This document shows, piece by piece, positions 21,445-43,006 of a stretch of 59,734 bases of DNA (its first letter is position 1; every line of letters starts with the position of its first letter). The notes beneath the pieces are model-generated. The model ran no database searches, was not told where the DNA came from, and saw nothing but the letters and a program-made list of their open reading frames with translations. Source of the DNA: Candidatus Xenobia bacterium. Its GTDB lineage: Bacteria > Vulcanimicrobiota > Xenobia > Xenobiales > QWHO01. A program made the position numbers and the translations under genes. The stretch spans positions 1-59,734 of the forward strand of contig BTUM01000048.1 of the NCBI GenBank assembly GCA_045863235.1. The letters are read 5' to 3'.

Positions 21445-22731
21445 CTACTGCGCGGGGTGTCGCTTGCGCACCGAGAACCCACCCACGAAGACTCGACCCG
21501 CGGTCTCGTGGATCCGCCCATCCCGGGGGAGGTCGGGAGAAAGGGCCGGCGGAGCCTGGCCCTGGACCGGCGTGGCGGCATCGCCGCCGGAATCGGTGGA
21601 ACCCGGCTGGTCGGGGGGAGCTCCGGCCGCCGCTCCTCCCCCGGCGGCAGGCAGACCGGGGGCCTGATCCAGCGGAAGACCGCTGGCTGCCTTCCCCTCG
21701 GCCATGGTGTCGGGTCTGGAGGTCGCCCCACCGGAGGACCGGGACTTCATCCGCAGCAGCTTCTCCAGACTGTTCCAATCGCGCTGGCGGGTCAGCTCGA
21801 GCAGATGGGGTAGCTCGGCCTGGGAGATCGGAGCCCGGGTGGAACGCTCCAAGAGCGAGGGAACGAAGCTCCCGCTGGACGGGTCGAGCTCCTCGGCCAG
21901 CGCCGAAGCCAGGGTGCCCTGGGCCTCGGTCAATTGCGAGGCCTGGCAGATCCGGGTCACCAGGCCGCTGGCGCGGTGCGCCAGCTCGGAGCGGCCCAGG
22001 GCCGGTGCCAGACTTTGAAGCACTCCGACCTGGGGCGAGGTAAGGCTTTGTTTCAGGACCTGGGTGGTGGCCACCCGGGCCCAGTGGGACTCGGGCCCAG
22101 ACAGGGCGGGCAACAGCCGACGCACGACCTCGGCCTCGGACGGACTGACCTGGCTCCGGCTCAAGAGGTCTGAGGCCACCGAGCACGTTTCGTGCTGGGG
22201 AAGCCTGGCCTGGAAGAGCTCCTGCAGCAACTGGCTTTGAGTCGTGGTCAGATCGGGCCCATCGGCCAACTGGCAGGCCAGGTCGGCCCAGCGGGTCTCG
22301 TCCTTCTCGGGCCAGGCCTTGACCAGGTCGGTCAGGGCTGCAGAGTGGGCTTCGCTGAAGCGGGGGTTGGCCGCCACGTGGCGGGCAACCCCGACCCGCA
22401 GGTGCAGGTTCCCCCGGGCTTTGAGCAGGTCGAGCACGGCTCGGGCACTCACCTCACCGATGTCCCCCCGGGCCCGCACGTCGTCTCGCAGGATCAAGAG
22501 CCAGTCGGAGGGGATCTCGCGCAGCGGTTTGCCATCCAGGGACTGAAAGAGGGCCTCCAGGGCGGCTTGAGGCGAATCCTTGGGATAGGTCTGCGAACCG
22601 CTGAACCCGATCCTCTGGTCGTGAGGGTCCTGGGCCTCCTGGGAAGGGGCTGGCACCCCCGAGGCCGAGACCTGCGGGACGAGCCCGCCCTGGTTGCCCA
22701 GAACGGTCGGGACGTTCGAGGGAATCAGCAT
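21445..22731 (-). CDS. Hypothetical helical protein with shared C-terminal motif
   Basis: Low-complexity N-leader (MLIPSNVP..), helical core, ends IHETAGRVFVGGFSVRKRHPAQ. Start inferred. Confidence 0.75.
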   Translation of the reverse strand: MLIPSNVPTVLGNQGGLVPQVSASGVPAPSQEAQDPHDQRIGFSGSQTYPKDSPQAALEALFQSLDGKPLREIPSDWLLILRDDVRARGDIGEVSARAVLDLLKARGNLHLRVGVARHVAANPRFSEAHSAALTDLVKAWPEKDETRWADLACQLADGPDLTTTQSQLLQELFQARLPQHETCSVASDLLSRSQVSPSEAEVVRRLLPALSGPESHWARVATTQVLKQSLTSPQVGVLQSLAPALGRSELAHRASGLVTRICQASQLTEAQGTLASALAEELDPSSGSFVPSLLERSTRAPISQAELPHLLELTRQRDWNSLEKLLRMKSRSSGGATSRPDTMAEGKAASGLPLDQAPGLPAAGGGAAAGAPPDQPGSTDSGGDAATPVQGQAPPALSPDLPRDGRIHETAGRVFVGGFSVRKRHPAQ

Positions 22732-22887
22732 TCCCGGGAATTTCTCAGTGGATTGTTGGCGCTCCTTCTGGCTTCGATTCTGCCGCAACCGGCTCGGATC
22801 CCTATCCTACGGCCTGCGACGAGCCAGCAGTACGGCTCGGCCAACCTCGCCGGTAGGAGAAATTCCACCGAAGGATAACTGCCCGGC

Positions 22888-23340
22888 GTGCAGGCCTACA
22901 TGTTCGCCCACCGGGTTTTCCCGCGCTGGTTCTTCGAGGACCCGGCGGCGGTGGCCCAGGTGCTCTCAGGGCCGGAAGCCCTCCCCCACCTGATCGCGCT
23001 CTGGAAAGAGGTCGGGATGGCTTGCCAGGAGAGCCTGGCCAGCGACGGACTCGCCCTGGAGCCGGTGCGGCTCGACGACTGGCAGGGGGTCCTGATCCGG
23101 CTACCTCCGCCCGGCGAGGTGCCGGAAGCCCACTTCCTGTGCCTGGTCTGGCCCTCGTCGAAGGGGCCCGAGGCGGCCCGCATCGTCACCCTGGAGCACT
23201 CGCTCGATCTGCAGGGGGAGAAGCGCACGGTATTGGGAGAGTGGCGCTCGGACGGGGCCCACCTGAACTTCGGCTCGGGTCCTGAGGCGCAGAGCAAGCC
23301 CTTTCTGGAGGCGGTGCAGCGCATCATCGGCAAAGGTTAG
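22888..23340 (+). CDS. Hypothetical protein
   Basis: 150-aa globular-looking ORF (YMFAHRVFP...TVLGEW...HLNFG). Confidence 0.75.
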   Translation: MQAYMFAHRVFPRWFFEDPAAVAQVLSGPEALPHLIALWKEVGMACQESLASDGLALEPVRLDDWQGVLIRLPPPGEVPEAHFLCLVWPSSKGPEAARIVTLEHSLDLQGEKRTVLGEWRSDGAHLNFGSGPEAQSKPFLEAVQRIIGKG

Positions 23341-23537
23341 CCCATCGGAGCCCAGAGGTGGGCCCGCCTGTAGCTCGCCTGTCGAGCGATACGCGCCCCT
23401 GACTGCGTTGATCGGGAATGGCGCGGCGCTGTTCAACAGGTCAAGGCGCGGGAGTAGAGACGGATTTAACATTTCTGCAATGTCCCTGGCGGTGCCAGGA
23501 GCTAGACTCATAGCAGACCAACCTGCAGGAGGTCCTC

Positions 23538-23957
23538 ATGAAGCGATTGATGATTCTGGCGGCACTGCTGTGCTGCCTGGCCATGCCGGCGCCCGCCCAG
23601 ACCGGCATCTCGGTGCAGATCGGCGTAGGCAATGGGTATCCCACCTACCCCGTGTATCAGAGCTACCCGGTGTACTACCAGCCGGGCTATGTGTACTACC
23701 AGCCGGGCTACAGCTACCCGGTTCAGCAGCCCTACTACTACAACACGGGCTGCTATCCCAACGGCTACAACCCGGGCCCCGGCTACTCTTATCCCAACGG
23801 CTACAACCAGGGCTACTCGTATCCCAGCGGCGGTTACAACAACGGCTCTTGCGCCCCCCGTCCCACCTATCACAACAACTCCCGGCCTTACAACAACGGT
23901 CGCGCTCGGCCCGGTCAGGCTGCTCCCGTGTATCGAGCCGGGCGGGTGGTGCGCTGA
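23538..23957 (+). CDS. Secreted Tyr/Pro/Gly-rich low-complexity protein
   Basis: AGGAGG SD, Sec signal (..PAPA|Q), repeated YYQPGY and YPNGYN. Confidence 0.8.
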   Translation: MKRLMILAALLCCLAMPAPAQTGISVQIGVGNGYPTYPVYQSYPVYYQPGYVYYQPGYSYPVQQPYYYNTGCYPNGYNPGPGYSYPNGYNQGYSYPSGGYNNGSCAPRPTYHNNSRPYNNGRARPGQAAPVYRAGRVVR

Positions 23958-24029
23958 GCCCAGCGTTTGCACTCCATGACCTGACATGCTCTGGCACAGG
24001 TCCGGCTTCTGGCGTATAATACCGGCACC

Positions 24030-24509
24030 GTGAGAAGCTTCATCCTCTTTCTTCTGCTGGGCTGCATCGCGCTGGCTCAGCCCGCTGCCGTACCCGAGGC
24101 CGACCAGGCAGCCGCCCGGGCACTGCTCAAGGAGCTCTACGCCGCCTACGAGTCGCGCCAGGTGGACAAGGTCATGGCCCTCATCGCACCGGCCGTGGAG
24201 GCCTCGGCCCAGAGCGACGCGCAGGGACGTGCCCAGGCGATCCGCGATGCCTTTCGGGCCTTCCACGAAGACCTGCTCAGCCATCCCGACTTCCGGCTCG
24301 AGCCCTTCAACGACCACTTCCTGGGCTTTGAACCGCAAAAGGACGGCGCGTTCCGGGTGATCTCCTCGGTGCCTGTCATCCTGTCCGACAGCCTGGTCTT
24401 CAAGGAATCCGACGGCACCCCCACGGCTCCCATCCGGCTGCGGCTGGGGGCTTTCACCATGCAGCGCGACAAGGGCGGCACGCTGCGCATCACGGGGATG
24501 GACCTGTGA
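24030..24509 (+). CDS. Secreted hypothetical protein (NTF2-like)
   Basis: Signal peptide (..IALA|Q); TATAAT 9 nt upstream; stop overlaps the rlmN start. Confidence 0.75.
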   Translation: MRSFILFLLLGCIALAQPAAVPEADQAAARALLKELYAAYESRQVDKVMALIAPAVEASAQSDAQGRAQAIRDAFRAFHEDLLSHPDFRLEPFNDHFLGFEPQKDGAFRVISSVPVILSDSLVFKESDGTPTAPIRLRLGAFTMQRDKGGTLRITGMDL

Positions 24510-25567
24510 GCAAAGTCAACCTCAAGGACCTCACTCCCGACGAACTGGTGGCCTTCGTGCGCGAGCTGGGCGAGCCGGCCTTCCGGGCCCGCCAGCTGCT
24601 GCGCTGGATCTACACCGCCCGGGAGACCGACTTCGAGCGCATGACCAACCTGTCGCTCAAGCTGCGCTCGCGCCTGCAAGAGAAGGCCGAGATCCCCGAG
24701 CTTGCGCTCAAACAGGAGCGCCACTCCGAGCAGGAGACCACCAAGTACCTCTTTACCCTGCCCGACGGCGAGGTCATCGAGAGCGTGCGCATGCACTACC
24801 TGGGCGATGACGTGGGCCCGGGGCGGGTGGCGGTGTGCATCTCCACCCAGGTGGGCTGCGCTATGGCCTGCGACTTCTGCGCCTCGGGCAAGCTGGGGCT
24901 CCGGCGCAACCTGGCCACCTGGGAGATCGTCGACCAGGTGCTGCAGATCCAAAAACGCCTGGACGAGCAGGGCGAGCGGGTGGCCAACGTGGTCTTCATG
25001 GGCATCGGCGAGCCGCTGCACAACTACCGCAACACCCTGCGGGCGGTGCGCATGATCAACTCCCCCGAGGGACTGGGGATCGGCATGCGCCACCTCACCA
25101 TCTCCACGGCGGGGTTGGTGCCGCGCATCCGCGAGCTGGCCGCCGAGAAGCTGCCCCTGCGCCTGGCCATCTCGCTGCACGCCACCAACGACGAGCTGCG
25201 CGAGAAGATCATGCCGATCAACCGCAAGTGGAAGCTGGCCTCTTTGCTGGAGGCCTGCCGCGACTACCAGGAGGCCACCTCTCGCCGGGTGACCTTCGAG
25301 TACGTGCTGCTCGACGGCATCAACGACTCGGTCGAGGAAGCGCACGAGCTGGTGCGCCTGCTTTCGGGGACGCACTCACTGGTCAACTTGATTCCCTGGA
25401 ACCCGATCGAGGGGGTGCCCTACAAGCGCAGCCGCCCGGCCCGGGTGCGGGCCTTCCAGGAAGTGGTGGAAAAAAGCGGGATCAAGTGCACGGTCCGCCA
25501 GGAGAAAGGCAGCGACATCGCGGCCGCCTGCGGCCAGCTGCGCTTGAGCGATCTCAAGCCGGCATGA
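24506..25567 (+). CDS. rlmN: 23S rRNA m2A2503/tRNA methyltransferase RlmN
   Basis: CISTQVGCAMACDFC radical-SAM motif, FMGIGEPL, AISLHA, DIAAACGQL. Confidence 0.97.
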   Translation: MSKVNLKDLTPDELVAFVRELGEPAFRARQLLRWIYTARETDFERMTNLSLKLRSRLQEKAEIPELALKQERHSEQETTKYLFTLPDGEVIESVRMHYLGDDVGPGRVAVCISTQVGCAMACDFCASGKLGLRRNLATWEIVDQVLQIQKRLDEQGERVANVVFMGIGEPLHNYRNTLRAVRMINSPEGLGIGMRHLTISTAGLVPRIRELAAEKLPLRLAISLHATNDELREKIMPINRKWKLASLLEACRDYQEATSRRVTFEYVLLDGINDSVEEAHELVRLLSGTHSLVNLIPWNPIEGVPYKRSRPARVRAFQEVVEKSGIKCTVRQEKGSDIAAACGQLRLSDLKPA

Positions 25568-26187
25568 GCTGGCTGCGCGAGCTGGAGAAGGCCCTCGAGG
25601 AGACCATCGAGGGCCGCACCGAGGGCAGCCACCGCCTGGAGGTAGCACACCTGTTGATGCGGCTGATGTTGGACAGCCGTCTGGTGCTGAAGAACAAGAC
25701 CGAGCTGGCCCCTAACTCGTTTCGCATCTGGTGCGCCGAGGCCCTGAGCCGAGACGATCAGGAGTGGCTGCGCGAGAACCTGGCCCGCGAGGCAGCCGAG
25801 CGGGGCTGGGTACTGGCCGGTCCGTGCGAGTTCTTCTTCGAGCCCGGCCGCGAGCTGGCCGCCGCGGCCAGTTTCGCGCTGCAGGGCGAGCCGGTGGTGG
25901 CCATGGTGGACAACTGCGGGGCCATGCGCGAGCGCGGCTTCGTCACCCGACGCGGGCTGGTGCTGGGGCGGGGCCGGGGAGCCGAGCTGCGGCTCACCGA
26001 CCCGCGCCTGTCGCGCCGCCACGCCCGGCTCTACCCGGCGGTGGGGATGCTGTGCCTGGAAGACCTGGGCAGCCGCGCCGGCACGCGCCTGGAAGGGGCG
26101 CGCGTAGGGCGGGTGCCCTCGGAGGTCAAGGACGGCAACCGCATCCGGGTGGGCGACACCGAGTTGCAGGTGTGGCTGCTGCCTTAA
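25564..26187 (+). CDS. FHA-domain protein (FhaA-like)
   Basis: C-terminal LGRG...DPRLSRRHA...EDLGSRAGT; ATG overlaps the rlmN stop. Confidence 0.85.
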   Translation: MSWLRELEKALEETIEGRTEGSHRLEVAHLLMRLMLDSRLVLKNKTELAPNSFRIWCAEALSRDDQEWLRENLAREAAERGWVLAGPCEFFFEPGRELAAAASFALQGEPVVAMVDNCGAMRERGFVTRRGLVLGRGRGAELRLTDPRLSRRHARLYPAVGMLCLEDLGSRAGTRLEGARVGRVPSEVKDGNRIRVGDTELQVWLLP

Positions 26188-26197
26188 GTCCCGCGCC

Positions 26198-26599
26198 TTA
26201 GCGCTCGGTCAAGCCGTTCGTGGAGTCGTAGCGGGGATGGTTGGCGGGAACCTGGGCGGCTTTGTGGGCCTGACCCTGGCAGCAGTACTCGTAGGCGTCG
26301 GGTTCGGTGGACATCCGGTAGCTCGCGGAGTAGGTGTCCTGGCCCGCAGCCGGGCAGACGGGAATGATCCTCAGGTAGTTCGGCGTCAGGCTGCCGAGTT
26401 GCGTGGGATAGTAACCTGAATTGTCGGTCGAGTACATCTCCAGACCGAGGCCAATGGTCTTGAGGTTGGATTTACACGAAGTCAGATCCCGGGTGCCCAC
26501 CGACGGTGGCTGGTCCTCGGCCAGACCGGGGACGAGCATGAGCGCGCCCACTACGGCGCCGGCGAGAAGATGGTAACGGTTCAACTCTGGTTCCCCCAT
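26198..26599 (-). CDS. Pilin/GspG-like protein lacking a canonical prepilin motif
   Basis: CKSNLKTIGLGLEMYSTDNSGYYP..LTPNYL..IP.CP.A..DTYS; paralogous to 54489-55070. Confidence 0.75.
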   Translation of the reverse strand: MGEPELNRYHLLAGAVVGALMLVPGLAEDQPPSVGTRDLTSCKSNLKTIGLGLEMYSTDNSGYYPTQLGSLTPNYLRIIPVCPAAGQDTYSASYRMSTEPDAYEYCCQGQAHKAAQVPANHPRYDSTNGLTER

Positions 26600-26649
26600 C
26601 AGATTGATGCAGGCTCGTTCGAACCGGACCGGATGCTTCCCTCCGGGCG

Positions 26650-26691
26650 GCCGGTCAGGGTCCTTTCAGACAATATGGCTAGACTCAGAGC
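26650..26691 (+). promoter_or_regulatory. Shared direct-repeat/-10 leaderless promoter (copy 1)
   Basis: GCCGGTCAG-N2-TCCTTTCAG-N10-TAGACT-N6-GTG. Confidence 0.7.
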
Positions 26692-28533
26692 GTGATCACC
26701 TCGATCGGCTCCGGCTGGCAGCTCGCCTGGAAACCCGGGCCCCTGGCCGCATCCGGCCCGGGGCCAGAAGCGGTGGATGTCTTCAGCCCTTCCGCGCCGG
26801 TCGCCTCAGAGCCTTCGGAGGCCGGCCCGGCCGTGCCGGCCAGCCTGATCGCATCCGGTAAGGAAGCGCTCAAGCGCTTCGACTTCATCTCCAGCGAGCG
26901 CATCGACCTCAACGCCTTCCCTCGTCCCCAGCGCACCATCGAGTTCCTCAACGGCGAGAGCGAGTACTCGATTCGAGACAAGAAGCTGAACCCGGTCAAC
27001 AACCCCCTGCAACTGGTCCGCCCCTACGCCCTGCACAGCTGCAGCTCGCTCTATTACGAGATCAACCCGGGCATGTCCGGGCCCAACATCTATCGAACCG
27101 AGCGTGGTTGGGGCGAGGACGGCCGGAAGGAAGAGGGTTACCTCAAGCTGGTCAAGGCCTTCGAGACCTTCTCGGTGAAGCTGCTCGAGAGCCTGAACGT
27201 GGAGGACGCCGAAACCCGTCGCGCGCAGGTCAAGACAGCGCTGGACGAGGAGTTCGGGGGCAAGAAGGTCAGCCAGTACCTCACTCCCGAGGACGCGCGC
27301 AAGATCTCCCCCGACCAGAGCCCGGAGAGCTGGCTGGTTTACGGGATGCTGAACGTCCTCTTGCACCCCTCCCCCGAAGTGTCGGCCCGGGCCCGGCTCC
27401 GCTCGCTCGAACTCCTCAGTCTGTTTACTCCGCAGGCCATGACGGATGGCTTTCGCAGCGAGAAACAGCGCTATCACAACGGCTACGACCGCATCAGCCC
27501 ACCCCGGCTGCCCGAGCGCATCGCCACCCGCGAGGAGCGGCTGGCCACCGACAAGGTGGAGTGGACGCGCAACCCGTTCATGCAAGACCTTCTGGTGCGC
27601 GACCAGAACCGCCGCCTGGACACCCGAGCGGTCACCTCGCGGCTCCTGGAGGAGTCGCCCGACCTGGCCGTCTCGGTGGGGCTGCTGATGCTGCACGGCG
27701 CTGATACCACCGAGGCCGGCCTGGCCCTGTTGCAGGCCATCCCCCGCCTGGACGAGCAGACCCTTGAGAAAGTGATGGGTCCCGAGGCCTCCTACCTCAC
27801 CGATCGCTTCGGCCCCGCGGGCGCGACGGGTCAGGTGGTGCAGGGGCTGGGGCTGGCCTCCTCGCGTCCCACGGCCACGGCGGCCGAGCTGCAACAGCAG
27901 CTGTTGCGCAAAGAGAGCTACGCCAACCACCTCAAGGAAGAGCTCTCCCGCACCCAGGTCCAGCTGGCCGCGGCCCAGACCTCTCTGCAGGAGTCCCAGG
28001 CCCGGGTGCAATCCCTGGAAAACTGGAGCGTCCGGGCCCAGAAGTTCATGCAGGAAAACGAGCAGCGCACGACCGCGCTGGTGGAGACCGTGCTGGAGCT
28101 GTCGGGCCAGCCAGCCAGGCAACGCCTGGAGGGCCTGGAAACCCTGCTCTCAGGCGGGAGACTGTCGGAGCTGGAGCTGCCCCTGGTGGTCAGGAGCCGC
28201 GATCAGGCGCTGGCTCAGGCGGCCCGGGAAGCGAGCGATCTGGGCGCTCTGGGCCAGGTCGCCGCCACAGCCAGCAACTGCCTGCAGCCCACCGCCCTGG
28301 AGCTGGTGGACCGGGCTCTGAGCATGGTGGTGGGTCCCCTGGGAGGCCCGCTCGGGAACCTGCGCGAGGAGGTGGCCTCAGGAGCCACCCCTCCCGGCGA
28401 AGCCCTGCGCACCCTGAAGGAGGTGGGGGAGGACTACGCCCGCCTCAGCGCCACCCGCGAGGGGATGGCGGGCGTCCGGGTGGGCGACGGTCACGTGCAG
28501 GTGGGAGCGGTTCGCGTTCAGCAGCGGCGCTGA
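26692..28533 (+). CDS. Hypothetical protein with coiled coil and shared C-terminal motif
   Basis: Pro/Ala/Ser-rich leader, coiled-coil segment, ends VRVGDGHVQVGAVRVQQRR. Confidence 0.85.
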   Translation: MITSIGSGWQLAWKPGPLAASGPGPEAVDVFSPSAPVASEPSEAGPAVPASLIASGKEALKRFDFISSERIDLNAFPRPQRTIEFLNGESEYSIRDKKLNPVNNPLQLVRPYALHSCSSLYYEINPGMSGPNIYRTERGWGEDGRKEEGYLKLVKAFETFSVKLLESLNVEDAETRRAQVKTALDEEFGGKKVSQYLTPEDARKISPDQSPESWLVYGMLNVLLHPSPEVSARARLRSLELLSLFTPQAMTDGFRSEKQRYHNGYDRISPPRLPERIATREERLATDKVEWTRNPFMQDLLVRDQNRRLDTRAVTSRLLEESPDLAVSVGLLMLHGADTTEAGLALLQAIPRLDEQTLEKVMGPEASYLTDRFGPAGATGQVVQGLGLASSRPTATAAELQQQLLRKESYANHLKEELSRTQVQLAAAQTSLQESQARVQSLENWSVRAQKFMQENEQRTTALVETVLELSGQPARQRLEGLETLLSGGRLSELELPLVVRSRDQALAQAAREASDLGALGQVAATASNCLQPTALELVDRALSMVVGPLGGPLGNLREEVASGATPPGEALRTLKEVGEDYARLSATREGMAGVRVGDGHVQVGAVRVQQRR

Positions 28534-28534
28534 A

Positions 28535-28576
28535 TCCTTTCAGGCCCCTTTCGGGGATCCGCGCTAAGCTGAGCGC
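28535..28576 (+). promoter_or_regulatory. Shared direct-repeat/-10 leaderless promoter (copy 2)
   Basis: TCCTTTCAG-N2-CCCTTTCGG-N10-TAAGCT-N6-ATG. Confidence 0.7.
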
Positions 28577-30802: not shown

Positions 30803-30870
30803 AAGTCCGGCCGCAAACCCCCATGGGAACCTCCGCCACCACAAGATGTTGTAGGCGGCCCGACTTCTAG
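30799..30870. mobile_element. REP/MITE-like element with CTAG at both ends
   Basis: CTAG-AAGTCCGGCCGC...GCGGCCCGACTT-CTAG (11/12 inverted repeat); related ends at 30924, 36311, 43168 and 48387. Confidence 0.65.
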
Positions 30871-33174: not shown

Positions 33175-33219
33175 GCAGGTATAGAGGGTCAGCCTCAGCC
33201 CCCTGCGAAGCGCCAAGTC

Positions 33220-36294: not shown

Positions 36295-36310
36295 CGGAAG
36301 TTGCCTCCGA

Positions 36311-36328
36311 GGGTTTGCGGCCGGACTT
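36311..36328 (-). repeat. REP/MITE family half-copy
   Basis: AAGTCCGGCCGCAAACCC on the minus strand, between convergent genes. Confidence 0.7.
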
Positions 36329-36362
36329 GTAAGCACTTCCACCGAGGATCGCTGCGCAGAAG

Positions 36363-37634
36363 TTACGAGCCCGACTTCTGCGCCTCGCTTGAGCGCAATC
36401 GCTCGCGCACCAGGTCCTGGAGGGGACCGTCCACCAGCTCGGCCAGGTCCTTGCCCGGGCAGGTGGTCTGGCCGGGCGCCTCGTCGCGATGGCCGCGGAT
36501 GGTGCCCGGGTCGAGGTTGTGGCGCAGGCAGAGGTAGACCAGGATCTGGATCAGGGCCTCGCGCTGCTCGGGGCTGACCTTCTCGGTCTCGAAGTCGCCG
36601 TCGAGCTCGACGTTGATCACGCCGTTCAGGTCGTACTTCGTGTTGCTCTCGGGGCGGTAGCGCACGTCGCGGCCCTCGAAGATGCGGCCGTCGAAAGCGA
36701 TCATGTAGTGGTAAGGCAGATCCGGCCAGGCCTTGTCCTTCTGGCCCCACAGCTGCATGGCCCGCACCTTCTCGGCCATGTCCACGTCGTGCTTGGTGGG
36801 CACTCCGGCGTGGTGCACGACCAGCCGATTGGGGACGTGCTCGAGCTCGGGTCCAAGCGGTTGGGGGACCGATCCCCACTCCTCGCGGCGCACCACCATG
36901 AGCGGCAGGGCATAGGTGTCGCAACGCTTGTGCCAGCCGGAGCGCCAGCGCTCCTCGCCCCGCCCGGGAGGGGAGTTGGCGATGCGGCGATCCAGGCAGC
37001 GTCTGGCCGCCTGCGAGAACTCATAGGCGGCTCTCGGGCCGGCGGGCACGTCCTTCATCTCCAGCAAGACCCAGAGAAGGCCCCAGCCGTGGCCCTGGTA
37101 GCGCTCGGCGGGGGCGATCCCCTCGCCCTTGAAGTTGACGTAGTCAATCAGGGCGTAGACGCCGTTGGGGGTAGCCAGCAGCTTGTCGAGATTGCGCTTC
37201 ACTCGCTCCGGGTCGGGGGCGGCCTCGACCAGCCGGGGCAAGCTCGCCTGCATCCGGGCCACCAGGAACTCGGTCTGCAGATCCACCGTGGCCGCCAGCC
37301 AGGTGCGAAGCTCCACCATCTGCTCGCTCTCCTGGGCCTGCTCGAACGCTTGCTTCGAGTCCCAGGGGCAGGCTGACTCGAGGGCCACACTGGGGGGCGT
37401 GGCCCCCCTCTCGCGGGCAAAGCGCACGAAGCTGGGGAAGCTCTCCACGAAAGGGCCCCTCAACCCCCGGGGATACCAGATGAAGTGGCCGATGCCCAGC
37501 GAGGGGAACTCCTCGCCCTCGTTCCAGCTCGTGAGACCGGCTACCGTGCCATGGCACTCGTTCTGCCAGACCTTGCGGCCGATCCAGCTCTGCTCGAAGG
37601 TGGTGAGGGTCAACAGGATGAGAAGGGCGATCAT
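36363..37634 (-). CDS. Secreted two-domain protein: unknown N-domain plus PGRP-type N-acetylmuramoyl-L-alanine amidase
   Basis: VVRREEWG, LVVHHAG, WPDLPYHYMI..DGRIFEGR, RGHRD...TCPG; short hydrophobic signal at ATG 37634. Confidence 0.85.
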   Translation of the reverse strand: MIALLILLTLTTFEQSWIGRKVWQNECHGTVAGLTSWNEGEEFPSLGIGHFIWYPRGLRGPFVESFPSFVRFARERGATPPSVALESACPWDSKQAFEQAQESEQMVELRTWLAATVDLQTEFLVARMQASLPRLVEAAPDPERVKRNLDKLLATPNGVYALIDYVNFKGEGIAPAERYQGHGWGLLWVLLEMKDVPAGPRAAYEFSQAARRCLDRRIANSPPGRGEERWRSGWHKRCDTYALPLMVVRREEWGSVPQPLGPELEHVPNRLVVHHAGVPTKHDVDMAEKVRAMQLWGQKDKAWPDLPYHYMIAFDGRIFEGRDVRYRPESNTKYDLNGVINVELDGDFETEKVSPEQREALIQILVYLCLRHNLDPGTIRGHRDEAPGQTTCPGKDLAELVDGPLQDLVRERLRSSEAQKSGS

Positions 37635-37704
37635 GGGGCGGTCGAGTTCGTTCTTAACAAGCGGTTCACCCGCTGGCAACCGGCGACCGGGTAGACTGGG
37701 TCCG

Positions 37705-39189
37705 ATGCTGATACGAGAGGCGCAGTCCGTTCTTTCCGCCCCGGCGCGCCCGCCCCGGGCCAGGGGCTCGGCCGATCCCACCGACCGGGTGGAGATCAGC
37801 GGCCAGACCGTGCCCGTGGCCCACCAGCGCGAGCTGCGCGGGGCCTGGGTGGCCAGCGTCTGGAACATCAACTTCCCAAGCGCCGCGGGCCTGCCGGCCG
37901 AGCAGCAGAAGTTCGAGCTGACGGCCATGCTCGATCGGCTCAAGGATTGCGGCTTCAACGCAGTCTTCTTCCAGGTGCGCCCCGAGGGAGACGCGCTCTA
38001 TCGCTCGGAGAACGAGCCCTGGAGCGCCTGGCTGACGGGAGAGCAGGGGCGGCCTCCGGGCTACGATCCCCTGGAATTCCTCATCCAGGAGGCCCATGCG
38101 CGCAACATCGAAGTGCACGCCTGGCTCAATCCCTACCGGGCCCAGTCGGGTCCGCAGGAGCGGGTAGCCCCGCACATCGCGGTGGAGGAGCCCGAGCAGG
38201 TCCATCCCTACGGTGCCCTCAAGTGGATGGACCCGGGCACCGAGATCGTGCGCGAGCGACTGGTGGACGTGGCCCAGGACCTGACCCGGCGCTACGACGT
38301 GGACGGGATCCACTTCGACGACTACTTCTACCCCTATCCCCTGAGCGGCGTGGACTTCCCGGACGAGAAGACCTACAGCGACTACCAGCTCTTCGGAGGC
38401 ACCCTGTCGCGGGCCGACTGGCGGCGCGAGAACGTCAACCAGGCCGTGCGCGAGACCGCCGAAGGGGTGAGGGCGACAAAAGATCACGTGCGCTTCGGCA
38501 TCTCGCCCTTCGGCCTTCCCGCCCCCGAGCGCCCCGAAGGGGTGAGTGGCTTCGACCAGTATGAGGGTCTCTACGCCGATACCCAGAAGTGGATGGACCG
38601 GGGCTGGGTGGACTACCTCGCTCCCCAGCTCTACTGGCCCACCAGCTCGACGCGGCAGCCCTACGAGACGTTGCTGAACTGGTGGACCGACCACGCCCGC
38701 GAGGGGCACTATGTCTTTGCGGGCAACGACCTCACCTCGCTGGGCAAGAATGAGCGCTGGACGGTGGATGAGTTCCGCCAGCAGGTGGAGATCTGCCGCT
38801 CGCGGGCCGAGCAGGGCTCGCAGGGCAACATCTGGTACAACGTGGGGCCGTTGATGGAGAACCGTCAGGGGATCGCGGACGTCTTCCAGGACGAGCTCTA
38901 CGCCCGGCCCGCCCTGACGCCGCCCCTGGCGGGGGCGGCCGGCCGCCCGGTGGCCGCTCCCAAGGTAGGGGTCGAAGGCGGAGTTCTGCAGCTCGAGCAC
39001 CGCGACGATGCGCCGCTGCGGGCCTGGACGGTGTACCGCCGCGAGGGCGAGGGATGGGAGCTCGACCGCGTTCTGCCCGGGGACAAGACCATTCTGGAGC
39101 TGCCCGCCGGGGAGTGGGCCATCGCGGCCGCCACCAAGCACGGCAACGAGAGCCAGGGGGTGGTGGTCACCACAGGCGGCTCTCGATAG
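37705..39189 (+). CDS. GHL10 (YddW/DigH-like) glycoside hydrolase
   Basis: ELRGAWVASV.NI.FPS, FFQVRPEGDALY, EVHAWLNPYR, YDVDGIHFDDYFYPY, FGISPFG, DYLAPQLYW; TAGACT 7 nt before ATG. Confidence 0.92.
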   Translation: MLIREAQSVLSAPARPPRARGSADPTDRVEISGQTVPVAHQRELRGAWVASVWNINFPSAAGLPAEQQKFELTAMLDRLKDCGFNAVFFQVRPEGDALYRSENEPWSAWLTGEQGRPPGYDPLEFLIQEAHARNIEVHAWLNPYRAQSGPQERVAPHIAVEEPEQVHPYGALKWMDPGTEIVRERLVDVAQDLTRRYDVDGIHFDDYFYPYPLSGVDFPDEKTYSDYQLFGGTLSRADWRRENVNQAVRETAEGVRATKDHVRFGISPFGLPAPERPEGVSGFDQYEGLYADTQKWMDRGWVDYLAPQLYWPTSSTRQPYETLLNWWTDHAREGHYVFAGNDLTSLGKNERWTVDEFRQQVEICRSRAEQGSQGNIWYNVGPLMENRQGIADVFQDELYARPALTPPLAGAAGRPVAAPKVGVEGGVLQLEHRDDAPLRAWTVYRREGEGWELDRVLPGDKTILELPAGEWAIAAATKHGNESQGVVVTTGGSR

Positions 39190-39354
39190 AGGCTTCGACC
39201 ATCGTGATCATCTCGCGAGGTGACGGGAACGATGGTCGGTCAGAGTCGGGGAAACCCTGCTCCGAATGGTGGGCGCAGGGCACTCAACCCGCCGGCGCAA
39301 TCGAGCGAGTGCTCGTGGGCAGTTGCTCCGTGGAACCACTATCCCCAAGCCTGG

Positions 39355-40029
39355 TTAGATGTCTGTCGAGGGAGCCTCAGGCTCGGCCTTCTTCTTTCTC
39401 AGGACCACGCCGCCGATCTGAACCTGCTGGCCGTCCTCGCGCACATCCGACTCGGGCAGAGCCTGGCGTGTCTCGGCCGCGACCTGCCGGTCCTTATGGT
39501 AGGCCTGGAGCTCGGACTGGTGCAGGCTGACTTTGGCCCTCAGGCCGCTGGCCAGGGACTTCACCTGGACCGCGGCCAGGGCGCTCCCGCCCCACAGTGC
39601 CGCCCCCGCCAGGGGGCGAACCCACTCGGGGGCTGCCGTCAGGGCTACGCCGATCAGCTTCATGGGCAAAAAGACGCCGGCCAGAGAGCCAGCCGCGGCG
39701 GCGGCGCAGGCCAGCGCGATGGTCGCCTTCATACCCAGGCCCTTTTTGTGATGGGCCATCAGCGCCAGGGCCGTCCCGACCACGACTCCGGTCAGGCCGC
39801 CCACCATGGCCGGAGCAAAAGAGATCAAGCTGGGAACCAGGAGGCCTACGGCGGCCCCAGCCGCGGTGGCACCCACCAGGGTCAGGGCGCTCTTGCGCCG
39901 GAAACTGGCCACCTCGGGCGGCTCTGCGGGAGGGGCCGGCTCGAGCAGGTCCTGGGGCACCTCGGGACGGACCGCGGCTGCCGAGCGAACGGACACTGTT
40001 GAGCCGGGGATGGTTTGCTGGACGATCAT
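39355..40029 (-). CDS. Multi-TM hypothetical protein with shared C-terminal motif
   Basis: Low-complexity leader, about four Gly/Ala-rich hydrophobic helices, ends VREDGQQVQIGGVVLRKKKAEPEAPSTDI. Confidence 0.8.
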   Translation of the reverse strand: MIVQQTIPGSTVSVRSAAAVRPEVPQDLLEPAPPAEPPEVASFRRKSALTLVGATAAGAAVGLLVPSLISFAPAMVGGLTGVVVGTALALMAHHKKGLGMKATIALACAAAAAGSLAGVFLPMKLIGVALTAAPEWVRPLAGAALWGGSALAAVQVKSLASGLRAKVSLHQSELQAYHKDRQVAAETRQALPESDVREDGQQVQIGGVVLRKKKAEPEAPSTDI

Positions 40030-40062
40030 ACCTTGCCAGGGTAGCCGCAGAGGCTTAAAGAA
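40030..40062 (-). promoter_or_regulatory. Shared promoter (copy 3)
   Basis: TTCTTTAAG-N10-TACCCT-N8-ATG on the minus strand; upstream partner box weak. Confidence 0.6.
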
Positions 40063-40096
40063 TCCTACCCGAGCGGTCACTCCCGGCATCGGTGCG

Positions 40097-40318
40097 CCAC
40101 CGACCTCGAGCGGTGGGTCTCCGGCGCCACCAACCTCAAGCTGGCATTCTCGGGTGGGGCACACACCGGTCTCCGCCACCAACCTCGAGCTGGCATTCTC
40201 GGGTGGGCACGCGTCTCCGCCACCAACCTCGAGCTGGCATTCTCGGGTGGGGCACGCACCCGGTCTCCGCCACCAACCTCGAGTTGGCTACTCTCGGGTG
40301 CGGGCACACACCGGTCTC
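40097..40318. repeat. Tandem array, 4 units of 44-50 bp plus a partial unit
   Basis: CCACCAACCTCGAGCTGGCATTCTCGGGTGGGGCAC..GTCTCCG at 40127, 40176, 40220 and 40270. Confidence 0.9.
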
Positions 40319-40443
40319 TTGCGCCAGCAGGGCGGGTCCATACCCCGGGCGCTCCTCCACCCGGGCGCCAGGCGCGGAGGATGAGAACGCGGGCGAGGGG
40401 TCATTGATCGCGTGTGATGACCCGGCAGATGGCGGTGTCAAGC

Positions 40444-41688
40444 TCAGGGAGGGAAGCTGCCGCGCACCAGTCCTTTGTCGCCTGCCACCAGGTAGTCGCC
40501 CTGGTTGTTCAGACCCACGCCCATGCCGCTTTCTGAGTAGCCCACATCGAGCCGCTCGCCCGAGGGAGTGGTCAGGTACTCCCAGCGAGCCTGGCCGTCG
40601 GCGATCTGGCCCCGGATGACCCCTTTGTCCCCGGCCACGACGAACTGGCCACGCTCGTTCACAGAGACGCCCAGGCCGCTCTCGGAGTAGCCCAGGTCGA
40701 GGCGCTCGGTGCCTTCCTGCAAGAACTGGTAACCCTGGCCCAGGCGACCAAAGATGACTCCCTTGTCGCCCGCCACCATGAACTGGCCGGAGTTGTTCAG
40801 GGCCGCGCCAAGACCGCTCTCGGAGTAGCCCAGGTCGAGCCGCTCGCGTCCTTCCTGGAGGTATTGGAAGGTGGGATTGCCCTCGTTCAGGTCGCCGTGC
40901 ACGATGCCCCGATCGCCCGCCACCAGGAACTGCCCGTGGTCGTTCAGGGCCGCGCCCAGGCCGCTCTCGGAGTAGCCCAGGTCGAGACGCTCTCCGCCCT
41001 GCATCAGGTAGCGGAAACTGGCACTGCCGTCCTCGCCGAGCTGTCCGTGCACGATGCCCCTGTCACCCGCCACCAGGAACTGCCCGTTCTCGTTCAGGGC
41101 GGCTCCCAGGCCGCTCTCGGAATAGCCCAGGTCGAGGGCCTGGCTGCCTTCCATGAGGTAGCTGGCCACCGGTCCGTCGGGAGTCAGACGGCCCACCAGG
41201 ATGCCCCTGTCGCCGGCGATCACGAACTGGCCCTTCTCATTCAGGGCGGCCCCCAGGCCACTCTCGGAGTAGCCCAGGTCCACCAGATTGCCGGCGGCAT
41301 CGCGCAAGAGCTCGCCGTTGATCAGGATGCCCCTGTCGCCGGCCGCGATGAAGTCGCCCCGGTCGTTGAGGGCGGCGGCCAGGCCGCTCTCCGAGTAACC
41401 CAGGTCCACAACCTGGTTGTTCTGGCACACGAGCACCTGGCACTCCGCGGGAGGCGTGGCAGGGGTCGAGGGACCGCAGCCGGCCAGGCCGAGCACGCCC
41501 ACCAGGGAGAGGGCGGCGAACAGGCCCGTCTGCCAGCGGCCGAACTGACGCGGCGCCTCTTGTGAGGTGCGGGGCTGCGAGAGAATAACGGACTCGGTGG
41601 GAGCCTCGTCGGGGGACACCAGCGAGCGCGCGCCGGGTGGTGGGCGGTGGGCCAGGCCGGAGGCCGCCAGAGGGCGGATGGTCAGCAT
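40444..41688 (-). CDS. Putative lipoprotein with 7 near-identical repeats (symmetric beta-propeller)
   Basis: Seven copies of (L/V)D(L/V)GYSESG.....N..G.(F/Y)..AGD(R/K)G; hydrophobic stretch ending LGLAGC after a ~50-aa leader. Confidence 0.85.
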   Translation of the reverse strand: MLTIRPLAASGLAHRPPPGARSLVSPDEAPTESVILSQPRTSQEAPRQFGRWQTGLFAALSLVGVLGLAGCGPSTPATPPAECQVLVCQNNQVVDLGYSESGLAAALNDRGDFIAAGDRGILINGELLRDAAGNLVDLGYSESGLGAALNEKGQFVIAGDRGILVGRLTPDGPVASYLMEGSQALDLGYSESGLGAALNENGQFLVAGDRGIVHGQLGEDGSASFRYLMQGGERLDLGYSESGLGAALNDHGQFLVAGDRGIVHGDLNEGNPTFQYLQEGRERLDLGYSESGLGAALNNSGQFMVAGDKGVIFGRLGQGYQFLQEGTERLDLGYSESGLGVSVNERGQFVVAGDKGVIRGQIADGQARWEYLTTPSGERLDVGYSESGMGVGLNNQGDYLVAGDKGLVRGSFPP

Positions 41689-41730
41689 GGCTCCAGAGTG
41701 CCGCAGCGACCTGAAAGGAGGCTGAACGGC
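41689..41730 (-). promoter_or_regulatory. Shared promoter (copy 4)
   Basis: GCCGTTCAG-N2-TCCTTTCAG-N10-CACTCT-N6-ATG on the minus strand. Confidence 0.7.
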
Positions 41731-41753
41731 GGGGGCGGGGAAAGCTGGCCGGC

Positions 41754-42443
41754 ATGTACAGCCGCTCTGCCCGTTTCTACGACGCGATCTACGGTTTCAA
41801 AGATTACGAGGCCGAGTGCCGGCGGCTTGTCGAGCTCGTCGGTCCGGGTGGGAGCTTGCTGGACGTGGCCTGCGGGACAGGGCTGCACGCGCGCCAACTG
41901 ACCAGGAGCTTCCAGGTCACCGGTGTCGATCTCGATTCCGAGTTGCTCGAGGTGGCCCGGGCAAACGTGCCCCAGGCACAGTTTCTCCAGGCCGACATGC
42001 GCTCGTTTGACCTGGGACGCACCTTTCGGGTGGTCACCTGTCTGTTCAGCTCCATCGCCTACGTGAAGACCGAGCAGGCTCTGCACTCGGCCTGCGCGTG
42101 TCTGGCTCGTCACCTGGAGCCAGGCGGCAAGCTCTTGGTCGAGCCCTGGTTGCGGCGCGAGATGCTCAAGCCTGGCCATGTCGGCCTGGACACGGCCGAG
42201 TGCGATGGGGTTCGACTGGCCCGCATGAGCACGTTGGAGATCGTGGGCGAGCTGTCGGTGATCCACTTCCACTACCTGATCGGGTCAGCCGAGGGGATCG
42301 TCCACGAGACCGAGGACCACGAGCTGGCGTTGTTCACGCTGGAGCAGTACCGACAGGCGCTGGAGCAGGCCGGCCTGCAGGTGGAGTTCGAGCCGGAAGG
42401 TCTTTGTGGTCGCGGGCTCTTCACAGGGGTGCGCGTGGATTGA
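41754..42443 (+). CDS. Class I SAM-dependent methyltransferase (TylM1/DesVI-like)
   Basis: A.FYDAIY..KDY..E, LLDVACGTG.H, ADMRSFDLG, TCLFSSIAY, HLEPGG.LLVEPW. Confidence 0.9.
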   Translation: MYSRSARFYDAIYGFKDYEAECRRLVELVGPGGSLLDVACGTGLHARQLTRSFQVTGVDLDSELLEVARANVPQAQFLQADMRSFDLGRTFRVVTCLFSSIAYVKTEQALHSACACLARHLEPGGKLLVEPWLRREMLKPGHVGLDTAECDGVRLARMSTLEIVGELSVIHFHYLIGSAEGIVHETEDHELALFTLEQYRQALEQAGLQVEFEPEGLCGRGLFTGVRVD

Positions 42444-42484
42444 CCTTCAGCTTGCTTTAAGCCCCGCGACGTATCCTCGAGCCG
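42442..42484 (+). promoter_or_regulatory. Shared promoter (copy 5)
   Basis: GACCTTCAG-N2-TGCTTTAAG-N10-TATCCT-N7-ATG. Confidence 0.7.
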
Positions 42485-43006
42485 ATGACGATTCAAGGAC
42501 TGCCCGATTGGGCCAAAACCTCCTACGCGTGCGTCGAGCGCAAGCTGGTCAAGCCTGAGGTGGCCTGGAAGTTCGACTGGAACTTCCCCCACTTCGACAA
42601 CAAGTATTCCAGCCAGTGTGAGTCCTATCTGGGACTGGACGAGACCCTGGCCGATCAGGCCCTGGATCAGCCCGACTTCGTGAAGCTCAAGAACCAGAAC
42701 GGGACCGAGGTGACGGCTTCCGGGGACGCCAAATCCGGCTACTACGTCGAAGCTGCCACTGAGAAATGCGTGGTGGCACGTTTCTCCGAGAACGCGGTAG
42801 ACCACTTCACCCTGAGCCCCGACGGCGGCTGCGAGTGGATGCACGTCGACCGCAAGAACACGGGCCGCAGCTTCCAGCTCCTGTTCCAGGTGGACCCCAC
42901 GCGGCTCGAGGTGGAGTCGCTCACCTCCGACCCCCGCGGCCAGGGCGTCTCCGAGCGCGACGGTGCTGTCGTGGTGGGCGGAACCGCAGTCCGCAAGCGC
43001 TCCTGA
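42485..43006 (+). CDS. Hypothetical protein with shared C-terminal motif
   Basis: 173 aa; ends VSERDGAVVVGGTAVRKRS. Confidence 0.8.
   Translation: MTIQGLPDWAKTSYACVERKLVKPEVAWKFDWNFPHFDNKYSSQCESYLGLDETLADQALDQPDFVKLKNQNGTEVTASGDAKSGYYVEAATEKCVVARFSENAVDHFTLSPDGGCEWMHVDRKNTGRSFQLLFQVDPTRLEVESLTSDPRGQGVSERDGAVVVGGTAVRKRS

Follow-up and report, generated by a model that had tools for sequence, protein, structure and literature searches.

We found that an 18-residue C-terminal tail (hereafter, the tag) recurs on about 175 to 200 proteins in the genome of a Candidatus Xenobia bacterium (GCA_045863235.1, labelled G000), on otherwise unrelated bodies that carry no Sec-like signal. Our tentative reading, to which we give a little less than an even chance, is that these proteins form a co-regulated class of cargo, with the N-terminus as the candidate export signal and the tail as a second module for docking. 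The tail may be a docking label on cargo of the lineage's flagellum-derived, flagellin-less type III machine.

A C-terminal tag on unrelated proteins

The analysis started from five tails within positions 21,445..43,006 of contig BTUM01000048.1 (positions 1..59,734; this whole stretch of 59,734 nt is called the window). All five are in frame and gap-free and translate exactly as the sequence-only reading had claimed, and they end 1-11 residues from the stop, within the proposed limit of about 12 aa. The fourth tail, described as running "to 39444", is present on the minus strand, but 39444 is the high end of its coordinates (Table 1). The starting strict consensus, [VI]-x6-[VT]-x-[VI]-G-[GA]-x2-[VL]-[RKQ]-[KRQ]-[RK], matched at 21 places when all 73,495 six-frame ORFs of the genome were searched, and 19 of the matches fell within 15 aa of the stop. 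When the five tails were used to seed an ungapped, iterated PSSM that was blind to position, it detected 175 copies at ≥20 bits on 174 of the 7,151 called genes of the whole genome, so that 2.4% of the proteome is reached from a single 18-residue profile; about 25 more copies are weaker. The C-terminal position holds for 168 of the 175 copies, which lie within 30 aa of the stop (a zone with 9.4% of all positions), at a median distance of 4 aa, but not for the seven internal copies, at 173-321 aa from the C-terminus. Residues C-terminal to the motif are free in both length and sequence. The profile scan proposed earlier therefore gave many, nearly all C-terminal matches, far above the controls, as five shuffled proteomes and the reversed proteome had none. 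Neither of the outcomes named beforehand as fatal, matches away from C-termini or at shuffle level and identity with a known Pfam/TIGRFAM domain, was what we found. These controls and the position near stops practically dismiss a chance pattern, a reading-frame artefact and a repeated DNA element, as do the facts that all 174 tagged ORFs are called genes, that the tag is kept in five families and that synonymous codons are scrambled among the copies, which places the conservation at the protein level. Genomic clustering of the tagged genes is mild, with 12 adjacent pairs, where 300 random draws averaged 4.3 and reached 12 at most.

Table 1. Tags, tagged genes and predicted promoters in the window
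Feature	Position	Strand	Description
Tag 1	21460-21513	-	31.8 bits; ends 4 aa before stop
Tagged orphan protein (tag 1)	21445..22731	-	428 aa, most likely start ATG 22731
Predicted regulon promoter	26652..26691	+	TTTCAG box, -10-like TAGACT, then start codon; score 26
Tagged orphan protein (tag 2)	26692..28533	+	613 aa; type-III-like S/P/A-rich leader
Tag 2	28474-28527	+	23.6 bits; ends 1 aa before stop
Predicted regulon promoter	28534..28576	+	two TTTC(A/G)G boxes 11 bp apart, -10-like TAAGCT, ATG; score 22
Tagged protein (tag 3)	28577..30802	+	741 aa
Tag 3	30722-30775	+	26.7 bits; ends 8 aa before stop
Tag 4	39391-39444	-	39.0 bits; ends 11 aa before stop
Tagged protein (tag 4)	39355..40029	-	224 aa, most likely start ATG 40029; leader and hydrophobic segments
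Predicted regulon promoter	40030..40075	-	TTTAAGCC box, TACCCT, ATG; score 27
Untagged member of same predicted regulon	40444..41688	-	414 aa; leader and repeat protein; promoter score 23
Predicted regulon promoter	41689..41735	-	two TTCAG boxes 11 bp apart
Predicted regulon promoter	42440..42484	+	TTCAGC and TTAAGC 11 bp apart, TATCCT, ATG; score 25
Tagged orphan protein (tag 5)	42485..43006	+	173 aa
Tag 5	42947-43000	+	35.6 bits; ends 1 aa before stop

Within the window, the gene at 21445 has an alternative start at an upstream TTG, giving 447 aa; its product has no Pfam or NCBIfam match, and the regulon promoter was not found for it (promoter score -15). The promoter and start region at 26652..26691 has no Shine-Dalgarno, and the leader of the 26692 protein scores 4.1 (threshold 1.4). 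The 28577 protein has a weak, sub-cutoff Pfam match to a beta-propeller (Vgb lyase), and the 42485 protein keeps the tag in 4/4 homologues of 67-87% identity. A Rfam search of the window gave no match. The RNA-run contigs over 24000-43500 have a flat low depth that may be DNA and is uninformative on expression or start sites.

Tagged proteins as candidate cargo

BLAST sorted the bodies into 87 clusters, of which 71 have a single member, and a Sec-like signal was detected on 0/172 tagged proteins versus 16.9% of 6,514 others in a crude test; both the unrelatedness and the non-Sec character were thus borne out. Being non-Sec and diverse, the tagged set looks like an effector-like repertoire, as had been proposed. 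At a background of 5%, a classifier of type-III-like N-termini (leaders), which was trained only on untagged genes (AUC 0.865), recognised 83 of the 173 tagged proteins, and 25 of 60 among those whose starts did not come from the promoter model. Roughly half of the tagged set, with two of the five window proteins among it, scores below the threshold for a leader, and many proteins have the leader without the tail. By a crude hydropathy test, a single long hydrophobic hairpin is present in 28 of 67 tagged proteins of ≤400 aa, compared with 118 of 4,177 others. Six tagged proteins carry extracellular-type MAM domains without a signal peptide, and beta-propellers and coiled coils (the latter judged by eye) also occur. 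One tagged protein (C22:1469) seemed by eye to have a flagellin-like start, but it matched neither flagellin models nor the flagellins of relatives.

In AF2 models, the tail has three strands (E11-13, E17-20 and E23-26; pLDDT 86-88), and the same three strands appear in one full tagged protein after a linker of pLDDT <50, its N-terminal 40 aa being disordered. These models predict a small sheet of three strands, tethered by a flexible linker, in which one face is rich in valine, the first strand is acidic and the last is basic. The earlier proposal of a small beta-hairpin with a basic tail was right, by this prediction, about the beta structure and the basic end but not about the number of strands, three instead of two. 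A helix usually lies upstream of the linker (positions -20 to -10). When 67 tails were searched at E ≤ 10, the best NCBIfam values were 0.07-0.11, each on one member, and the best Pfam value was 0.034, on two members; no model covers the motif. The best PDB match had an E of 0.27, with no entry covering the motif, and the ESM Atlas gave no usable feature match to the tail. These searches support the claim that the tag is a family uncatalogued in Pfam, NCBIfam and PDB.

A flagellin-less export apparatus and the range of the tag

A flagellar-type export apparatus (FlhA/B, FliPQR, FliH/I/J and FliF) is present in the genome. Its contig C27 encodes FlhA/B, FliPQQR, FliO, two FliN, FliM, FliK and FliJ/I/H, and also two FliG, FliF, FliE and FlgC. 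FlhA, FlhB, FliR, FliP, FliI and FliF score above the flagellar model cut-offs, and the injectisome TIGR models SctV, SctU, SctT, SctR, SctN and SctJ stay below their own. Flagellin (PF00669) had no match in G000, which is 97.6% complete, and tblastn of this genome with relatives' FliC, FliD, FliS, FlgD and MotA-like proteins found nothing; one weak MotB-like match had 34% identity over 124 aa. The C27 FlhA lies outside a 9-row branch of flagellin- or FliD-linked FlhAs (SH-aLRT 99, quick tree). The apparatus represents a separate conserved FlhA lineage, with true flagella also present in relatives, and has its own 81-aa protein family, which served as a marker of the machine.

The tag ranges over 14 genomes in five families of Eremiobacterota/Vulcanimicrobiota and was found in 0/201 genomes of an unrelated phylum; in distant families, 29 of 30 fetched matches lie within 20 aa of the stop. 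A single match in f14 (G172, E 9.7e-4) was taken as noise, as it disappeared with a broader profile, and matches in G081 and G087 (E 0.005-0.008) were left out of the count. In the 221-genome set, all 12 solidly tagged genomes carry the 81-aa marker, and the tag was not detected in 35 of 47 marker-positive genomes, among which related genomes are not independent.

Tagged genes show no linkage to the export locus, and the fetched loci (L054-L126) have only two tags. Comparison of export loci and FlhA paralogue counts with the tag revealed no co-occurring candidate reader protein. Extra FlhA C-terminal-domain paralogues were rejected as tag readers, since their number is independent of the tag and the tag-negative family f3 has 5-19 matches. 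A four-helix protein adjoining the export locus, with no named relative in the Atlas, was rejected as a chaperone, since it is also in loci of tag-negative genomes. A search for CesT-type (class I) chaperones had 0 matches, as did its control. The sheath of T6SS/eCIS (VipB/PF05943, PF04984) had no match in G000.

A predicted SARP-type promoter shared by tagged genes

A SARP-type promoter, with predicted leaderless mRNAs, is common to 113 of 174 tagged genes, an in-sample count because tagged genes also served to train the promoter model. The promoter spacer is fixed in 113 of 116 training sites. In 184 of 247 genes, a second TTCAG (≤1 mismatch) stands upstream at a distance of exactly 11 bp, and any other offset from 8 to 25 accounts for at most 6. 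The layout is of SARP/OmpR type: the direct repeats are spaced by 11 bp, and 8 bp separate the 3' one from the -10 element. Passages of the literature on SARP-activated promoters such as afsS describe direct repeats 11 bp apart, 8 bp between the 3' repeat and the -10 element, and TTCAGC in the afsS -35 region (PMC10936776); repeat spacing, -10 distance and TTCAGC are all alike here. Unlike afsS, the promoter here precedes about 250 genes, scattered and predicted to be leaderless, whose products are effector-like. G000 encodes 25 BTAD proteins, none of which was singled out as the activator. The promoter is absent from the export genes tested, and the 81-aa genes were rejected as members (promoter scores 3, -9 and 0).

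Possible docking before export, or action of the tail elsewhere

In the mechanism that we favour, a SARP/OmpR-type activator would turn on about 250 leaderless genes together, and the disordered N-terminus would serve as the export signal. Either a chaperone common to the cargo or a component of the export apparatus would bind the exposed hydrophobic face of the tail, before export or in its course, by analogy with flagellar substrates, which are bound at their C-termini. The tail may mark cargo for delivery to target cells, and untagged leader proteins (subtilase-like enzymes) may go to the medium. For the docking module we counted the motif statistics, the missing Sec signal, the leader, the hairpins, the MAM domains, the flagellin-less apparatus and the co-occurrence with the marker, and also the predicted fold, the negative searches for T4SS, T1SS and sheath components, and the flagellar precedent. 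Against it we counted that the machine is far wider than the tag, that tagged genes are unlinked to the export locus, and that the export and 81-aa genes lack the regulon promoter. Also counted against it were the tagged proteins under the leader threshold, the T2SS and type IV pili also present in the genome, the FlhA paralogue number that does not track the tag, the CesT-type chaperone search that was blank along with its control, the in-sample promoter count, and the beta-sheet form of the tail, as known flagellar C-terminal signals are helical D0 regions. The original proposal that the tail itself is the secretion signal is probably too simple, considering the leader on about half of the tagged proteins, the many leader proteins without a tail, the marker-positive genomes without a tag and the internal copies. 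A wider reading, which we regard as doubtful, is that a duplicated flagellar export apparatus independently became an injection machine with the 81-aa protein as filament subunit, under a SARP-type switch, and that a universal folded C-terminal tag selects prey- or host-bound cargo. It would involve a single switch for hundreds of leaderless effector genes and a tag not known from any described type III system.

An unlikely but serious alternative is that the leader alone directs export and the tail acts only afterwards, binding a ligand shared by all tagged proteins, either on or inside the target cell or at the surface of the producer; an anionic lipid, LPS, a filament or a conserved host or prey protein are candidates. 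This would suit a basic tail on a flexible linker, membrane-hairpin and adhesin-type cargo, the tolerance of internal copies, the many machine-bearing genomes without the tag and the failure to find a co-occurring reader. On the other hand, about 87 unrelated bodies would all have to work with a single ligand, and the conserved tail face is hydrophobic, a better fit to a protein groove than to a polyanion.

It is improbable that the tail is the sole secretion signal of another one-step route (a T4SS-like basic signal, T1SS or an unknown machine). Translocation signals of VirB/D4 T4SS have a basic C-terminus, and the tag, which is also carried by non-Sec proteins, resembles them in its positive charge at the C-terminus; in addition, 14/14 tagged genomes have general membrane-fusion proteins. 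However, the tag has a conserved beta core, the coupling protein T4CP (PF02534) was found in 0/14 tagged genomes, VirB4 (PF03135) had no match in G000, HlyD of T1SS (TIGR01843) exceeded its cut-off in 0/14 genomes, and no RTX Pfam family matched among 112 tagged proteins scanned. Moreover, the common N-terminal leader would be left without explanation.

Equally hard to credit is a self-association knob, comparable to the foldon, that clamps coiled coils or joins cargo proteins. Its exposed hydrophobic face and the helix usually before the linker would fit, but one homotypic surface on about 200 proteins would cross-react, and several tagged propeller proteins have no helix before the tag. The predicted self-association of three tail copies scored 0.02, which counts as evidence neither way.

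Scarcely probable as well is a protease degron for the removal of cargo that is toxic or has not been exported. ClpX-type degrons with a basic C-terminal motif are known, and the basic end so near the stop, on cargo that could harm the producer, would agree with this; the seven internal copies, the free residues after the motif and a folded three-strand unit that exceeds a degron's needs argue against it.

To our knowledge, type III substrates share no conserved motif, and they are therefore hard to recognise. With the tag profile, candidate effectors can be listed at once for a lineage that is uncultured, possibly predatory and common in wastewater. If the export machine reads the tail, a flagellar exporter would have been re-tooled for hundreds of unrelated cargoes with its C-terminal targeting habit kept, and the transition from flagellum to injection would become testable in a second, independent case. 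If the tail acts after export, it would be a new portable targeting module. The tag, leader and promoter are all so short that each could be tested directly with reporters.

Comparison with known systems

Sortase, PEP-CTERM, GlyGly-CTERM and T9SS signals need a Sec signal and a TM helix or a domain of roughly 70 aa. The tag is like them in being a short C-terminal module with a basic end on many unrelated proteins of one genome, but it has no Sec signal, TM helix or domain of that size, and no NCBIfam or Pfam match. The Inc proteins of Chlamydia, in the parts of the source used here, are type III substrates with a long two-helix hydrophobic segment, coiled coils and an N-terminal type III signal (PMC3048545). 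The tagged proteins are similarly a large, sequence-diverse set with type-III-like leaders, predicted hydrophobic hairpins and putative coiled coils, but none matches Pfam IncA and the Inc shape occurs in only part of the set; the Inc machine is the injectisome, and those parts give no common C-terminal motif for Inc proteins (PMC3048545).

Flagellar substrates are described, in passages of Bryant et al. (2024; PMC10936197), as having N-terminal signals and an accessory C-terminal targeting signal whose loss can be bypassed, with chaperones of late subunits binding C-termini. Our scheme of a flagellar-type apparatus, N-terminal signal(s) and an accessory C-terminal targeting element is like that of early and late flagellar subunits, whose signals lie in D0 regions of a few structural subunits (PMC10936197, same passages). 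Unlike these, the tag is a single predicted beta mini-domain of conserved sequence, carried by about 200 proteins that are unrelated and non-structural. In flagellin-less Lysobacter enzymogenes OH11, flagellar export is co-opted for toxin secretion, according to sections of the report (PMC7688988). Flagellar export genes without flagellin are common to both cases, and the export of non-flagellar proteins, described for OH11 (PMC7688988), is predicted here. The present case differs in its large cargo set with a common tail, which those sections do not mention for OH11 (PMC7688988), and in its separate conserved FlhA lineage, found beside true flagella in relatives and with its own 81-aa family.

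Results

The C-terminal tail first noticed on five window proteins is a real, large and uncatalogued feature of this Candidatus Xenobia genome (8.36 Mb, 65.8% GC, 97.6% complete), in which the window is contig C48. The five 18-mers are in frame and lie 4, 1, 8, 11 and 1 residues from their stops, just as the sequence-only reading had them, and its strict pattern matched 21 times in 73,495 six-frame ORFs, 19 times within 15 aa of the stop. That reading expected a profile to hit almost exclusively C-termini, and to do so more often than in shuffled proteomes. An ungapped scoring matrix, seeded with the five tails, iterated without positional information and cut at 20 bits or more, converged at 175 matches in 174 ORFs, all of them called genes (7,151 in total by a simple hexamer gene finder); 168 of the 175 are no more than 30 aa from the stop, a zone holding 9.4% of positions, and no match came from the reversed proteome or from any of five shuffled ones. 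Another 29 proteins score 6-20 near the C-terminus, about 25 of which were judged by eye to be degenerate copies. Synonymous codons are scrambled across the copies, so selection acts at the peptide level. The motif was also rightly taken to be new to the catalogues: when 67 tails were compared with NCBIfam and Pfam, matches with E up to 10 were scattered and each fell on only one or two members, the best PDB match had E 0.27, and the ESM Atlas returned no usable feature match.

Columns 1-9 of the tag read V/I, x, E (61%), x, x, G/D, x, V (74%), x, and columns 10-18 V/I, G (89%), G (83%), V (78%), R (54%), V/L, R/K, R/K, R (74%). Upstream is a linker rich in P, G and S, usually but not always preceded by a helix. 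A small beta-hairpin with a basic end had been proposed; the beta structure and the basic end hold, while AlphaFold2 predicts three antiparallel strands instead of two (alignment of 69 tails, pLDDT 86-88). For one full tagged beta-propeller protein, residues 1-40 were modelled as disordered and were followed by the propeller and a short helix, then by a linker of pLDDT below 50 and the three strands at about 80. From the strand register, we infer that the conserved valines share one face and that this face needs a partner.

Seven of the 175 copies lie inside their proteins, where a linker and 173-321 further residues come after the tag, and one such protein bears a second, terminal copy. At C3:76161, C3:123379, C32:68044, C135:163 and C98:547 (C numbers are contigs of this genome), the internal tag precedes a C-terminal domain built from short tandem repeats; two types of repeat occur, both unannotated. 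The frame around a tag-like match at C71:29549-29617 (-) stays open for just 41 codons. Relatives have comparably tiny frames, and all of these are possibly stand-alone tag peptides or gene remnants.

The tagged bodies are diverse, forming 87 BLAST clusters with 71 singletons. A Pfam scan of 112 of the 174 found 17 PQQ-type beta-propellers, six proteins with InhA-like MAM domains (one also with CUB, F5/8 and reelin), one HD, one PD40, two sub-cutoff matches and 85 proteins without any. The earlier statement that they lack Sec signals survived a crude test, positive in 0 of 172 against 16.9% of 6,514 others. Most begin M-[QRN/ILE]-[IV], followed by a stretch rich in S, P, A and T, often with D-x-V-x-L-S. 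A classifier of such type-III-like leaders, trained on untagged genes only with its threshold at 5% background, recognised 83 of 173 tagged N-termini (AUC 0.865), including 25 of the 60 whose starts the promoter model had not chosen; the remaining half, with two of the five window proteins, fall below threshold. Among proteins of up to 400 aa, a single long hydrophobic hairpin occurs in 28 of 67 tagged and 118 of 4,177 others, and by eye coiled coils flank it on both sides in the tagged ones, the shape given for chlamydial Inc type III substrates (PMC3048545). The leader set is broader than the tag set. About 14 subtilase-plus-MAM-like proteins, recognised by eye, mostly carry a leader in place of a Sec signal, and both tag and promoter are missing from all of them.

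The hexamer TTTCAG is enriched upstream of tagged genes (77/174 vs 314/4,401). A two-box model (TTTCAGCC, 8 bp, TAnnCT, 6-7 bp, start codon) scored at least its cut-off of 14 at 113 of the 174 tagged genes (in-sample) and at 141 of 6,977 others; none of 1,769 decoy sets reached it. A second TTCAG stands exactly 11 bp upstream in 184 of 247 promoter-bearing genes and in at most 6 at any other offset, which confirms the model because this repeat was no part of it. The same leaders and hairpins are common among the 141 untagged genes; by eye, a few of these resemble enzymes of lipid or other metabolism and could be false positives. Between the -10 box and the start codon there are 6-7 bp, and Shine-Dalgarno-like words are rarer in regulon genes (8% vs 39%, partly by construction), so leaderless mRNAs are predicted, giving a predicted regulon of about 250 leaderless genes. 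The promoter is present at four of the five tagged window genes and at the untagged gene at 40444-41688. In SARP activators, as described in PMC10936776, repeats are 11 or 22 bp apart with 8 bp between the 3' repeat and the -10 element, and the afsS -35 region contains TTCAGC; the TTCAG repeats match this geometry. The genome encodes 25 BTAD proteins, candidate SARP-type activators, among which the activator could not be singled out.

The flagellar-type export locus on C27 has main components scoring above flagellar cut-offs and below the matching injectisome TIGR models. Flagellin was not found in this genome, nor were FliD, FliS, FlgD or a MotA-like protein when searched by tblastn with relatives' genes. 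Beside flhA are three copies of an unannotated 81-aa protein, whose family is conserved across 47 of the 221 genomes surveyed. A quick tree built from 26 FlhA proteins places those linked to flagellin or FliD in one 9-row branch (SH-aLRT 99) that contains no FlhA linked to the 81-aa protein, and several genomes have one FlhA of each kind. Judged from these separate branches and paired occurrences, the C27-type apparatus is a dedicated second apparatus. Its wider neighbourhood (C27:54348-79219; loci L004, L005) includes a conserved protein of 104 aa and another of 473 aa whose tail is similar. Paralogues of the FlhA cytoplasmic domain, five in number and either stand-alone or fused, lie on C80, C3, C1, C106 and C107 (L002, L003, L006-L010), and relatives have 1-19 FHIPEP matches each.

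Positions of predicted promoters, export genes and other listed features
Feature	Location	Strand	Content
Fourth tag	window 39391-39444	-	
Predicted regulon promoter	window 26652-26691		
Predicted regulon promoter	window 28534-28576		
Predicted regulon promoter	window 40030-40075		
Predicted regulon promoter	window 41689-41735		
Predicted regulon promoter	window 42440-42484		
Pilin-like and PilX-like genes	window 3694-6068; 26198-26599; 54489-55070	+; -; -	
Export locus	C27, 60.7-79.2 kb		FlhA, FlhB, FliR, FliQ x2, FliP, FliO, FliN x2, FliM
Export locus, continued	C27		rod/hook-like protein, FliK, lytic transglycosylase, FliJ, FliI, FliH, FliG x2, FliF, FliE, FlgC
Second small locus	C74:1-4124		sigma-28-like gene, rod proteins (by eye, BLAST)
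Subtilase-plus-MAM-like proteins	C5:152987-180501; C14, C29, C31, C32, C40, C41, C82, C94, C101		

Close homologues of a conserved marker protein of this genome are labelled Ca. Eremiobacterota, Xenobium, Bruticola or Vulcanimicrobiota, which points to class Xenobia. Tagged genomes total 14, spread over five families. In a class-level survey of 44 genomes, with at most 150 candidates scored in each, all five of the genome's own genus were tagged (at least 69-118 matches each), as were four genomes of family f2 (3-6 matches) and two of f4 (14 and 26), and the tag was found in 0 of 16 genomes of family f3 and 0 of 10 of genus g2. Three genomes of two families outside the class have 12, 14 and 17 matches at E<=0.01. 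In five distant genomes, 29 of 30 fetched matches end within 20 aa of the stop. One f4 genome has one strong promoter site. Leader and tag persist in the three genomes outside the class, but no promoter site scored in their loci. Phylum-wide, 13 of 221 genomes had a tag match at E<=0.001, one of which was dropped when its match vanished with a broader profile; the set includes G206 (family f14), flagged unpublished, on which alone no claim rests. The 81-aa protein is present in all 12 solidly tagged genomes of this set and in 35 without a tag match.

Out-of-phylum sampling is thin, comprising 201 genomes, 15 marker-locus genomes and 8,000 scored candidates. Homologues of the 81-aa protein occur in records labelled Desulfitobacterium (L119) and Blastocatellia (L122), at 47% over full length and 69% over 45 aa, and no tag was seen in the genomes of either record. 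Among 201 genomes from the phylum to which G225 belongs (locus labelled Blastocatellia), 0 had the tag, and the 15 genomes reached through marker loci added no tagged genome. From a 5.8-billion protein set, the 8,000 candidates gave 33 matches, mostly relatives of seed proteins; among 36 checked proteins (these matches and seed relatives), 33 carry the motif no further than 30 aa from their C-terminus.

Discussion

The tail, taken as a C-terminal tag for targeting or docking, is linked by indirect evidence to a flagellum-derived exporter that is itself undescribed. In our preferred reading, tentative and at somewhat under even chances, the leader would act as the export signal and the tail would serve as an accessory module for docking, recognised by a shared chaperone or apparatus part, on a co-regulated cargo class destined for a target cell. 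Flagellar export offers a precedent (PMC10936197): in early subunits a third targeting signal sits at the C-terminus, and overexpression makes up for its loss; the chaperones of late subunits also attach to C-termini. An accessory role agrees with tag loss in many machine-bearing genomes. Against docking, no reader of the tail was found, tagged genes are unlinked to the export locus, the export genes shown lie outside the regulon, and counts of FlhA-domain paralogues do not follow the tag. The strongest rival, that the tail works in binding after export, is less probable than docking, though worth serious consideration. That it is a self-association module is improbable.

A signal for another secretion route is improbable to the same degree. 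T4CP and above-cut-off T1SS HlyD were found in 0 of the 14 tagged genomes, and VirB4, VipB and sheath proteins were not found in this genome. T2SS and type IV pilus genes are present, with 23 matches to their ATPases in this genome; T2SS cargo needs Sec or Tat. A degron is marginally less likely still, and the internal copies indicate that the tag does not require a free C-terminus. The most far-reaching reading, in which an injection system with a universal cargo tag evolved independently, is less likely than not but clearly more than a remote possibility.

Full-text literature, mostly without subscription papers and bioRxiv supplements, yielded nothing on the motif or on the machine in Eremiobacterota. 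Predation has been proposed for the related Ca. Eudoremicrobiaceae in a paper whose available part lists TXSScan T3SS matches, at least one row being 'no_decision' (PMC9259500), and the available text of PMC11484240 does not mention secretion. The nearest functional precedent is flagellar export co-opted for toxins in the flagellin-less Lysobacter enzymogenes OH11 (PMC7688988).

The window holds several further elements. An intergenic stretch at 30801-30960 contains an inverted repeat of 17 nt and a direct repeat of 19 nt; it has 59 BLAST matches on 44 contigs of this genome and is a candidate REP/MITE-like repeat or small RNA. Four diverged 44-nt direct repeats (40095-40318; spacing 49, 44, 50) lie just upstream of a tagged gene's promoter and only on the window contig. 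The 40444-41688 gene (-) encodes a repeat protein with a leader and without a Pfam match, in which a hydrophobic stretch after the leader ends in a lipobox-like Cys well inside the protein. The small acidic protein at 18692-19036 (-) consists largely of Glu-Pro-Ala repeats.
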